From an uncultured Chloroflexia bacterium (GTDB lineage: Bacteria > Chloroflexota > Anaerolineae > CG2-30-64-16): 64,000 nucleotides of DNA. The notes under the pieces are model-generated. The model searched no databases. It was not told the DNA's origin and saw only the letters and a program-made list of their open reading frames with translations. Where the stretch lies: assembly GCA_963810095.1 (NCBI GenBank), contig CAWEMM010000002.1, positions 192,001 through 256,000 of the forward strand, in the 5' to 3' direction. Shown in pieces: positions 26,949 through 30,290 of the stretch. The position numbers and the translations under genes were made by a program. The first letter of the stretch is position 1. The number at the start of each line of letters is the position of its first letter.

Positions 26949-27010
26949 TAACACAAAGACACAAAGCCACAAGGATTAGCAGCGCCCTCGTGTCTTTGTG
27001 TCTTCGTGTT
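26949..27010. repeat. CACAAAGA-type periodic hairpin repeat
   Basis: AACACAAAGACACAAAGCCACAAGG...CCTCGTGTCTTTGTGTCTTCGTGTT. Confidence 0.85.
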
Positions 27011-27019
27011 TTCGTTCGA

Positions 27020-29065
27020 TTACTGGCCTAGCAGACCATCCAGCGTCTGGCTGAACTGCTGGAAGGGCAGCGCGCCTGAGAGCGGCGTTGGGCTGCCCGT
27101 CTCCTTGCCGTCCTGCATCTTGTACAGGAAGAATGCCGGGGTGCCGCGCACGCCGAGGGCGGCCCCGTCCTTCATGTCCTTGTCGAGCTGCGCCTGGGTC
27201 TTCGGATCGGCGATACAGGCGTCATACTTCGCCCCGTCGGCGCCAAGTGCAACGGCCTGGGTGCGGAATTGCGCCGCGGCCTCATTCGTCCCCAGCCCTT
27301 GCCACGAGTTTTGATTCTCGAACAGCCAGTCGTGCATCTCCCAGAACAGTTTCGGGTCCTGGTCGCCCGTGCAGAGCCCGGCCTTCGCCGCGCCCGGCGC
27401 GTTCGGATGGATGTCGAGCGGGAAGTTCCGATAAACCTGTACTACTTTGCCCGTTTTCATGTACGCTTCATACAGAAGCGGTTCCGTCTGCTGCGCATGA
27501 CGGCCACAGAACGGTCACTGGAAGTCCGAGAAGTCGACGAGCTTCACCGGCGCATTCGGATCACCCCGGTAGAAGTTCCCGTCCGCATCCCGTCCCACCT
27601 GCAGGCTCGCCAACTCAGACTTTGAGATCGAAGGCGGCGGGGTGGGCGTGGGCGTCGGCGGGACCGAGATGTCCTTGACTGCCTGGATGAACTGGTCCAG
27701 CGTCACCGCACCTACCAGGGGCTTCGAGTTCTCGGGCTTGCCCTCTGCGTTCAGCTTCAGCAGCAGGTACGCGGGCGCCTGGGGCACCCCGATGTCCTTC
27801 TGGCTGAAGGCAGTGTAGTTGTCGATGGTCGCCTGGGTCTTCTCGTCCTTCAGGCACGCGGTGAAGGCCGCTTCGTCCAGGCCGAGGCTCTTGGCGTAGG
27901 CCTGCATGGCCGCGTCGTCGCCCTCTTGCCACTCCGCCTGCTTGGTCAGGAGCAGGTCTCGGAACTCGAAGTATTTGCCCTGTTGGCCGGCGCAGTAGGT
28001 TGCGATGGCCGCCTTGGGCGATGCCAACGCAAAGATCTGCGAGACGAAGCGCACCTGGCCCTTGTCGATGAAATCGGACTTCAGCTGCGGCTGCACGTTC
28101 TTGGCGAACTCGGCGGAATCGGGGCTCTTGAAATCCTCGAACGCCAGGATGACGACCGGCGCTTTCGCGTCGCCCAGGTAGAAGCTGCCGTCGAAGTTGC
28201 GGCCGGCCCGCTGCGGATCCGTCTGCCAGAACTCAACGCCCTGGGGCAGCGGCGTAGGCGAGGGCGGCGGCTTCTGGCCGGCTTTCGCCTTCGCGATGTA
28301 GCTATCGAACTCCTCCACAGGCAGCGCGCCCAGGACGAGCCAGTCGTTGATGTAGAACGATGGGGTGCTCTGGACGCCAAGCTGCTGCGCGGCCTGGGTC
28401 TCCTGCTGCACCTTCTGTGTGTACTTGCCCGAGTCCAGGCACTGGTCGAAATCGGCCGTCTTCAGGCCGAGGTCCTTGGCGAATCCCTTCAGCTTGTCCT
28501 TGGCAAATGCGCCTTGGTTCTCGCCGTTCTGGCTCTCGAACAGCTTGTCGTGATACTGCCAGAATTGTCCCTGGTCGCCCGCGCACTCGCTGGCTTCCGC
28601 GGCCCACTGGGACTCTTCGCCCAGGAAGGCCATGTGCATGTAACCGAACCGAACATCACCCGACTTGACGTACTTTTCCTCGATCTGGCGACCCGCGCCA
28701 GTGGCCCAGCGGCCGCAGAACGGTCACTGGAAGTCGCTGATCTCGATAATGGCGACCTTTGCGTTGGGGTCACCTTTCCAGTGCGTCGTATACTTCGCAG
28801 CGGGGTTGATGCCCGCCGAGGCACCGGCTTCCTGGCTCCCCGGCTCGGCGGTGCCTGCCGGTACGACCGGGCCGGTGGCCGTGGTTGCCTGGGGCCCGGG
28901 CTGCACGGTTGCGCCGGGGGTCGTTTGCGCAGCCGCCGTGGGGGCCGGCGCGCTGGGCGGCGCGGTGCAGGCTGCCACCAGCAGCGCGACCACCAGCAAG
29001 CCCGCGGCCAGGGTGCCCCGGCCGGCCTGCCTGAGCCTGGCACGAGACTGGGTTTTCCTCATCAA
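27020..29065 (-). CDS. Three-domain DsbA/thioredoxin-fold lipoprotein, candidate selenoprotein with two in-frame UGA codons (681 aa)
   Basis: ORFs 28724-29065, 27515-28639 and 27020-27460 share one frame and are separated only by TGA at 28724-28726 and 27515-27517, each within SDFQ*PFC; lipobox LVAAC; cis-Pro motifs STP/GTP. Confidence 0.85.
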
Positions 29066-29113
29066 GTCCTCCTTTTGGACTGGGCGGGCGCCGAGCAGGG
29101 CAGAGCGCCGCCA

Positions 29114-30290
29114 TCAATACACAAACTCGCGGATATCATAGCGCGCCAACTGGGGCCCGCTTTCGCCGGCCCGCCCGAGCGCCGCTCGCAGCGCCGCTTC
29201 CTGCGCCAGCGTGTCCTGGGCCGAGAGCGCTTGCACGCCGGCCTGCTGCGCGAGCGCGCCGTATTCAGAACCGGGTTGCTCGAAGAACGGCGAGAAGTAG
29301 ACGATGTCGCCGGTTCCCAGCGGCATTGCGGCGAGCGCCTCCACCGTGTAACGCACATGGTTGGGCGCAAAGCGTCCACCGCCAATGCCGGTCATCACGA
29401 TCACGCTGACCGCGACGCCGGCCGCCTTCAGCGTGCCGACGGCGTCGACCACGTCGGCGGCCGACCCGGGCTTGCGCAGAAATTGCAGCAGCTCGTCGTC
29501 GCCGCTCTCCATGCCGATGTAGACCCGACGCAAACCCCGACCGGCCAGTTCCGCCCACTCTGCCGTAGACTTCCTGCCCACGTCAAACGCGTCGATAAAT
29601 GAGAAGACGCCCCCCGGCCGGCGCACGCCCGCGGCATCGATCACGTCCAACCACTCGCGAATGCGGGGCATGGGTGCGACCAGGGCGTTCGCGTCGGCCA
29701 GAAAAAGCGACTTGCGCAGGCCGGCGGCCGGGCCAAAAAACGCCTGCACATCGGCGACATGTCGCTTCAGCTCGTCCGCGCTTTTTATGCGGAACGGCCG
29801 CCCGCGATAGAAATCGCAGAACGTACACCTGTTATACGAACAGCCCTCTGTCGCCTGGATCACCAGCGCCAGGTATTGGTCGGGTGGCAGGATGCTGACG
29901 GGCCGGTAGATGCGGGTAAACTCGCGCGCGTCCTCGGTCAGCCGCTCGGGCGTCCACCCTGTCAGAACGTCGAGCCGGCGGTCATTCAGGGATAGGGCCG
30001 CCGCTTCGGCCAGCGCATACACTTCCCGCACAAACCGGCCCGCCTCGCCGGCCGCCAACCACCGGCGCTCGCGCCCCTGCGCGCCCGGCCACTTGCGCAG
30101 CACGCGGCCGTCTCAGCGCGCGGCGATAGTTGTAGCCGTCGACAAACGCGCCGACCAATCGCCCGGCGAGGTCGAAGGAGTAGCTCGGCTGCTCATCCCC
30201 GACAAGGACGTTAATCGCGACGGGCCGCAGCCGCACGGCCACCGGCCCGTAACCTGGTAAGGTGCAGTTAAATATCTCCGTGGGCATCAT
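29114..30290 (-). CDS. Radical SAM protein, frameshift near 30113
   Basis: CSYNRCTFC motif, FLADANAL, IGMESGD; N-terminal ORF 29982-30290 joins by one base. Confidence 0.85.

Follow-up and report, generated by a model that had tools for sequence, protein, structure and literature searches.

A triple-DsbA lipoprotein gene of an uncultured Chloroflexia bacterium with two in-frame UGA codons, a probable double selenoprotein

The gene described here lies on the minus strand of a 64,000-nucleotide stretch of DNA (the window; contig CAWEMM010000002.1, positions 192,001 to 256,000) from the assembly GCA_963810095.1 of an uncultured Chloroflexia bacterium. It encodes three tandem DsbA-like domains and contains two in-frame TGA codons, for which a double-selenoprotein reading had been proposed from the letters of the DNA (the original prediction). 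Translation of positions 27020-29065 confirmed that the three open reading frames (ORFs) called at this locus form a single 681-codon frame from a TTG, interrupted by TGA at codons 114 and 517 and nowhere else. An ATG at 29062-29060 is the likelier start; GGAGG, a Shine-Dalgarno-like sequence read directly from the DNA (29068-29072), lies 5 nt ahead of it. From this ATG, the coding sequence would span 27020-29062, with 680 codons and a TAA stop (27020-27022), and the two TGAs would be codons 113 (site 1, 28724-28726) and 516 (site 3, 27515-27517), the numbering used below. Both TGAs stand in the shared context GAC TTC CAG TGA CCG TTC TGY, which would read DFQ-U-PFC with TGA as selenocysteine (Sec, U), and the middle domain has DFKSPDS; both motifs had been described correctly.

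The predicted product begins with a putative lipoprotein signal peptide (residues 1-32, 28967-29062) that has a basic n-region, a hydrophobic core, and a V-A-A-C lipobox ending in Cys32. Cys32 was invariant and A31 nearly so among 11 orthologs, and a lipobox was present in all 12 orthologs whose start was located. The three domains follow on the same strand. Domain 1, a DsbA/Thioredoxin_4 domain termed type A, covers residues 93-258 (28289-28786), has the active site U113-P-F-C116, and is nearest to the family NF041057. Domain 2 (27668-28195) is DsbA-like and redox-inactive, with S313-P-D-S316 at 28115-28126, and it retains the cis-proline position and the Cys pair of the helical domain. Domain 3, a DsbA/Thioredoxin_4 domain termed type C (27038-27595), has the active site U516-P-F-C519. 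In the Pfam search, PF13462 matched with 277.5 bits (cut-off 23.2, E 5.7e-83) over three Thioredoxin_4/DSBA stretches, and PF01323 scored 108 bits.

The 11 full-length orthologs aligned with the protein end to end at 44-59% identity, with a mean column identity of 66%. Amino acid conservation ran uninterrupted across both TGAs, with invariant residues on either side of each. The C/U-P-x-C motifs of domains 1 and 3 were invariant, as were T233-P234, P430, and T641-P642; we take the Thr-Pro pairs of domains 1 and 3 and P430 of domain 2 to occupy the cis-proline loop position of DsbA, which faces the active site. Each domain also had one invariant Cys pair in its helical insert (160/208, 357/403, and 564/616), and these pairs are probably structural, like that of alpha-DsbA1.

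The AlphaFold model (11 orthologs) showed three thioredoxin folds with helical inserts, connected by Pro/Thr-rich linkers. Its mean predicted local distance difference test score (pLDDT) was 78.8 and its predicted template modeling score (pTM) was 0.39, with the relative placement of the domains undefined. The redox motif lies at the start of the first helix of each domain, being U-P-F-C in domains 1 and 3 (helices from residues 114 and 517) and S-P-D-S in domain 2. The top structural matches of the model were BdbD (target template modeling score 0.83, root mean square deviation 2.1 A), Corynebacterium DsbA/TsdA, and Wolbachia alpha-DsbA1. The same proteins were the top sequence matches among solved structures, with E values of 9e-22 to 6e-21 for the BdbD/Corynebacterium group.

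The codons at both sites were read in 17 related loci that hold the three-domain gene in whole or in part (the host genome and genomes G001-G007, G009, G010, G014, G016, G017, G020, G021, G022, and G024). At site 1, the codon was TGA in nine loci and TGC or TGT in six; it was masked by N in G003 and fell beyond the contig end in G006. At site 3, it was TGA in 16 loci and TGC in one (G022). The middle-domain motif was CPxC in four loci and not CxxC in the other 13, mostly SxxS or SxxA. Cys/TGA pairs were thus present in relatives at exactly the two positions of interest, and the U/U, C/U, U/C, and C/C versions (sites 1/3) all occur naturally, some of them within one genus. One further observation concerns the ortholog in G001 (L039), a genome of the same genus: it was cut by many frameshifts, and both TGAs and both hairpin sets described below were intact. 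These frameshifts look like the result of an error-prone assembly, not of gene decay.

The protein query (P0001) was matched in 39 of the 41 genomes of the family and class, host included. The 24 genomes that share the host's family all had a match, many of them with in-frame TGA. In a sample of 121 genomes drawn evenly from the phylum, 32 had a match (E <= 1e-30) and five, host included, had an in-frame TGA. Distant bacterial homologs have Cys at both sites, and 78 of 80 loci found with the peptide pattern DFQCPFCG had Cys at every active-site motif, a proportion that the pattern itself biases to Cys forms and that is uninformative on how frequent Sec forms are.

In public protein sets, close relatives (at least 50% identity) were present as fragments of 374 to 537 residues that covered at most 79% of the query, among the matches listed. 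The fragments fell into classes bounded by the two sites. Those of 374 residues span the interval between the two TGAs; those of 504-508 residues have Cys at site 1 and end at site 3; those of 528-537 residues start beyond site 1 and carry Cys at site 3, one of them being 76% identical to the query. The full-length database matches, Myxococcota proteins among them, were all-Cys and 27-36% identical to the query. Within this Anaerolineae family the three-domain, two-Sec form is typical, and public protein sets mis-annotate it as fragments. The arrangement UxxC/SxxS/UxxC had been called unusual, which holds for the literature and does not hold within this family, where it is the norm.

These comparisons bear on whether sequencing or assembly has turned TGC or TGT into TGA, or whether the locus holds three separate genes. 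The assembly does contain indel errors, which gives this explanation some footing. However, the errors seen, in selA and in a gene of the formate dehydrogenase alpha (fdhA) type, are indels and not substitutions, and TGA recurs in other assemblies (at site 1 in eight others and at site 3 in 16 of the 17 loci). Short-read contigs from three other public runs also covered one or both TGAs, and neither codon was among the differences listed, a list that left out 8 further ones. The DNA runs that best matched the stretch contain 0.29 of its sampled words, as contigs, and what they show is the presence of the TGAs and not a read pileup. Furthermore, the segments after each TGA carry no signal peptide of their own, and conservation crosses the TGAs. 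We therefore regard errors or three separate genes as an extremely improbable account of the locus.

The RNA downstream of site 3 was analyzed in an alignment of 63 nt, counted from the UGA, of 24 type C domains with Sec. Two hairpins were found. The first, H1 (27484-27503), pairs CCGUC with GACGG around a variable loop, with columns 15-19 facing columns 30-34 (CCCGUC/GACGGG in the alignment). The second, H2 (27464-27480), is CGCUUC-UGUAU-GAAGCG, with columns 38-43 facing columns 49-54 (CGCUUC-UGKAU-GAAGCG) and an invariant U-G-G/U-A-U/A loop. In the combined H1 and H2 structure, 93.1% of cells could pair, compared with 33-41% when the partner strand was slid by 1-3 columns; changes on both sides occurred in 10 of 15 pairs, and none of 500 shuffles reached the observed values. 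RNAalifold recovered both hairpins unaided. Compensation was seen in H1 in a paralog of G015, which swaps four core pairs (16-33 to 19-30) together with the flanking pair 14-35, and in G020, where one pair was changed. In H2, three pairs were changed in G004 and G007, which belong to one genus, with two amino acids altered.

The hairpins were linked to the codon. Among type C domains collected with the pattern [UC]P[FY]C[AGLS]RH, which leaves out type A domains, middle domains, and divergent paralogs, H2 was complete at 23 of 23 TGA sites and at none of eight Cys sites, and the core of H1 was complete at 22 of 23 TGA sites and one of eight Cys sites. Codon choice pointed in the same direction. 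For conserved residues in 15 orthologs (G022 and the frameshifted G001 left out), codon entropy was 0.44 in codons +1 to +18 after the UGA (14 columns) and 0.95 elsewhere (175 columns; one-sided Mann-Whitney p 2e-4), and the minimum of a sliding window over 176 windows spanned codons -1 to +17.

The published model of the bacterial selenocysteine insertion sequence (bSECIS), as given in the legend to Figure 2 of PMC13188914, calls for stems of 4-16 bp and loops of 3-9 nt, with 16-37 nt separating the UGA and the loop and with a G among the two leading loop nucleotides, mostly as N-G-[G/U]-N-N. The loop rule agreed with the host loops GGUCU and GUU (the fdhA-type genes), GUC (selD), CGGGU (site 1), and UGUAU (H2). 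H2 fits the stem and loop rules, and its loop lies 40 nt from the UGA. H1 lies 17 nt from the UGA, and its loop varies among orthologs and has no conserved G. Because the invariant, G-bearing loop of H2 fits the published rule and the loop of H1 is variable, H2 is the likelier SelB-binding SECIS apex, and H1, a conserved helix, would probably serve as a structured spacer. H1 had been the candidate of the original prediction; it is real and conserved, but H2, the most conserved of the three hairpins and one that had not been listed, is the likelier SelB site, and H1 was rejected in that role on account of its variable loop. A two-hairpin layout, with a variable first hairpin and a second with a GGU or GUU loop about 38-40 nt from the UGA, also occurs in the Sec-DsbA subfamilies of G037, G039, and G026. 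The selD UGA of the host (L019) is likewise followed by two adjacent hairpins, arranged as at site 3; the loop of the second is GUC and lies about 33 nt downstream.

Site 1 is followed by a single SECIS-like hairpin, CUGGCG-CGGGU-CGCCAG (28685-28701), with a 6-bp stem and 28 nt from the UGA to the CGGGU loop, values that lie within the bSECIS model. This hairpin had been picked out by eye and was retained in all five type A genes: it was identical in four (the window, G001, G019, and G015), and in G030 it was kept, with two pairs compensated and a third changed to G-U. Pairing was possible in 100% of cells, compared with 20-63% for the slid versions, and 22 of 500 shuffles reached the observed values. 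As the alignment comprises five sequences, covariation gives modest support for this hairpin.

The host genome was then considered for its capacity to decode UGA as Sec, and tRNA-Sec, SelA, SelB, and SelD were all detected, as the original prediction would lead one to expect. The tRNA-Sec scored 72.6 bits (gathering score 47), and ARAGORN called it SeC with the anticodon tca. In profile searches, selB scored 302.5 bits, or 345.6 bits with the C-terminal part. The selD gene (378 bits; contig C6, 1337268-1338194) has an in-frame TGA of its own, within ...ACAGUASK.... The selA gene (contig C2, 182884-184214; L017) lies about 8-9 kb upstream of the window and matched in two pieces (365 and 186 bits). 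Two fdhA-type genes, on contigs C10 (75996-77796; L148 and L150) and C9 (671923-673239; L149), have a Sec-type TGA in ...ARLUHSATV... and ...ARVUHSASV..., followed 18-19 nt downstream by hairpins with the loops GGUCU and GUU. Since these genes carry TGA at the classic Sec position together with such hairpins, the Sec trait appears to be in use in this genome.

We also considered whether the UGAs are decoded otherwise than as Sec, through near-cognate insertion of Trp or Cys or through a local change of the code. The position of H2, beyond the canonical spacing, leaves room for such decoding. However, TGA terminates 15 of the 33 long non-overlapping frames of the window, so the code is not reassigned, in agreement with the original prediction. 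It is also the gene's own stop in five of the 11 orthologs with a readable stop (a twelfth ortholog leaves its contig), indicating that recoding depends on context. In addition, the TGAs align solely with the leading Cys of CxxC, where Sec is classically found, the genome holds the full Sec machinery, and the hairpins accompany TGA and not TGC or TGT. Decoding as an amino acid other than Sec is accordingly a very unlikely explanation.

Several observations count against the reading of this gene as an active double selenoprotein gene. The stretch was found in no RNA sequencing run in the public run search. Single-sequence folding energies were unexceptional, with z of -0.33 (site 1) and -1.62 (site 3). 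The argument from RNA is therefore a comparative one, and its independent covariation events are few (the G015 paralog and G020 for H1, G004/G007 for H2, and G030 for site 1). The loop of H2 falls 3 nt past the 16-37 nt limit of the bSECIS model. A scan of positions 27000-29100 with Rfam gave no match at E up to 5, an outcome to be expected, since no general model exists for SECIS elements of bacteria. The host genome (6.13 Mb, 16 contigs) is 88.5% complete with 4.8% contamination. Finally, selA is split over two frames between SPYGLA and REPLVTES, the first of which runs into a TGA shortly past the break, and a real split of this kind would leave the strain unable to make Sec.

The last point, together with the incomplete genome, is the basis for viewing the gene as a dead or truncated relic in this strain, in which selA is broken, Sec decoding is lost, and translation ends at codon 113. 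The selA split is probably an indel error of the assembly, because selA was intact in four of the five relatives checked (G005, G024, G014, and G017), in the fifth (G002), another assembly of few contigs, selA is split at another position, and the host fdhA-type gene on C10 is also broken between two frames. Moreover, the frame of the present gene stays open for 567 codons past the first TGA with no downstream decay, neither SECIS-like element is damaged and both agree with their counterparts in relatives, and selD and the two fdhA-type genes keep their in-frame TGAs. A relic therefore seems improbable to us. The reading we favor, and hold with high though not full confidence on these comparative grounds, is that the locus is one gene for an exported, lipid-anchored triple-DsbA protein, in which both UGAs encode Sec, one in the catalytic site of domain 1 and the other in that of domain 3. 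The double-selenoprotein proposal is thus supported by the Sec machinery, the Cys/TGA pairs, the covarying hairpins, and the TGA codons retained in independent assemblies and short-read contigs.

Under the double-selenoprotein reading, the three called ORFs would be one gene with three tandem DsbA/BdbD-like thioredoxin-fold domains. Each UGA would be recoded to Sec by SelB with Sec-tRNA(Sec), and each would be served by its own stem-loop inside the coding sequence just downstream, namely a single hairpin with a CGGGU loop at site 1 and a hairpin pair, the second with a G-containing loop, at site 3. The product would be secreted unfolded, lipidated on Cys32, and kept at the outer face of the cytoplasmic membrane. 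Domains 1 and 3 would carry out thiol-disulfide exchange through a U-P-F-C selenenylsulfide, and the protein might act as an oxidase, an isomerase, or a reductase. Domain 2, whose redox motif appears to have been lost in this genus, could serve as a non-catalytic spacer or as a substrate-binding module. The shorter isoforms that the original prediction envisaged under selenium limitation are speculative; a protein ended at codon 113 would not contain a complete fold.

A VKOR homolog and CcdA/DsbD-type proteins were found in the host genome on other contigs, suggesting that oxidizing and reducing electron paths are both available, and DsbB was not found in this 88.5% complete genome. With regard to the gene location, a radical S-adenosylmethionine (SAM) gene (29114-30103, minus strand) lies about 50 nt upstream in the same orientation; it matches PF04055, has a CxxxCxxC motif, and shows weak similarity to the PhpK/B12 radical SAM families. 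It is syntenic in G003 and G010. The other flanking gene encodes an aminotransferase. A redox partner in the neighborhood was considered and rejected, as neither flanking protein is an obvious partner.

The domains of this gene also occur in other combinations. Domain 1 of the window protein was compared with loci L022, L024, L025, and L027 of the same genus and with L031 and L034. The type A form of domain 1 (UPFCGRWATGAGRQ) was present in the window protein and in G001; in the other five genomes of the same genus, domain 1 is a copy of the domain 3 type. In G019 and G015, a type A domain and a middle domain form a separate two-domain gene beside another multi-domain DsbA gene. These arrangements suggest domain swapping between neighboring paralogs. 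The downstream paralogs in G014 (L033) and G015 (L034) have the unusual Sec motifs DFL-U-GAC and DFQ-U-PGC, and in that of G015 a CGYC domain comes after the Sec domain.

Single-domain Sec DsbA-like subfamilies with conserved hairpins of their own were seen in other families of the class (L122-L135). The hairpin of the UPYCGQF... subfamily is CCGGCU-CGUGA-AGCCGG. The UPxCAG.../UPYCGQL... subfamily has a variable first hairpin and then GCGUCU-GGU/GUU-AGACGC with compensated changes. These loci were picked for a flagged TGA, and their 16 Sec versus 3 Cys sites are not a frequency.

In bacteria, every UGA that specifies Sec needs its own SECIS within the coding sequence. The present gene shows a route to multiple Sec residues, in which a domain is duplicated or swapped along with its embedded SECIS. 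The natural U/U, C/U, U/C, and C/C relatives form a ready series in which the contribution of Sec to an extracytoplasmic DsbA-type enzyme could be assessed, and the two-hairpin element about 40 nt from the UGA suggests that the limits now used in bSECIS searches are set too tightly for this lineage. A broader proposal is tentative and, in our view, less likely than not. It holds that in this Anaerolineae family the DsbA domain, the Sec codon, and the embedded SECIS make up one copyable module, whose tandem duplication and swapping may have built an extracytoplasmic selenoenzyme with two independently recoded UGAs and an active-inactive-active order like that of protein disulfide isomerase. The site 3 element might then represent a distinct bipartite SECIS class (a spacer hairpin, then a G-loop hairpin at about 40 nt), which a 16-37 nt search would miss, so that multi-Sec exported proteins could be systematically under-called in metagenomes.

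That DsbA-like UxxC selenoproteins are already known, as the original prediction stated, agrees with the literature, in which DsbA-like and DsbG-like forms have been described since 2005-2006 (PMC1088965, PMC1794560), the DsbG-like ones being tabulated in PMC1794560. The 2026 review PMC13188914 gives 119 prokaryotic selenoprotein families, most with one Sec and "a small subset" with 2-3, and lists the NF041057 family as "DsbG-like protein", UxxC, with one Sec. In NCBIfam, NF041057 is the "Rcas_1661 family thioredoxin-like (seleno)lipoprotein". The whole window protein scored 409 bits against this model (cut-off 190), and domains 1, 2, and 3 singly scored 163, 102, and 150 bits, each under the cut-off. 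As 409 bits is reached only as the sum of the three domains, the protein is a close relative of this family and not a plain member. Both have a lipoprotein signal and a thioredoxin fold of the DsbA/DsbG type, both place Sec first in UxxC, and both occur in the phylum Chloroflexota (judged from the name of the model and the phylum sample). However, NF041057 is a profile of 247 positions that stands for one domain with a single Sec, whereas the window protein has three fused domains and two Sec, and its domain 3 has a different, two-hairpin downstream element.

The DsbA-like selenoprotein form 1 (PF01323, UxxC, one Sec), first reported in PMC1088965 from the Sargasso Sea metagenome, resembles the present protein in having Sec in place of the first Cys of CxxC and widespread Cys homologs. 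It is of the single-domain COG2761/FrnE type, whereas the domains here match PF13462/BdbD best and belong to a predicted exported lipoprotein. The best sequence and fold matches, Bacillus subtilis BdbD and Corynebacterium DsbA/TsdA/MdbA (PDB 3eu3/3eu4, 4pwp, and 7unn), act outside the cytoplasm as thiol-disulfide oxidoreductases, in bacteria that have no DsbB-type partners; our host has a VKOR homolog. These proteins are single-domain and all-Cys, in contrast to the three domains, two Sec, and one inactive domain of the window protein. The all-Cys three- or four-domain "DsbA family proteins" of Myxococcota and others share tandem DsbA domains in one exported protein of about 650-670 amino acids, but they are only 27-36% identical to the window protein and have CPFC in every domain and no Sec.

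In eukaryotic protein disulfide isomerase (a-b-b'-a'), catalytic thioredoxin-fold domains flank one or more non-catalytic ones of the same fold. That protein is of unrelated lineage, with plain thioredoxin domains, no DsbA helical insert, and no Sec, and the likeness is an analogy only. In the literature searched, which comprised titles and text passages, no DsbA-type selenoprotein with several domains or with two Sec was described. In comparison with these systems, the kind of selenoprotein is known, and what is new is its tandem three-domain, two-Sec form with two different SECIS solutions in one gene.

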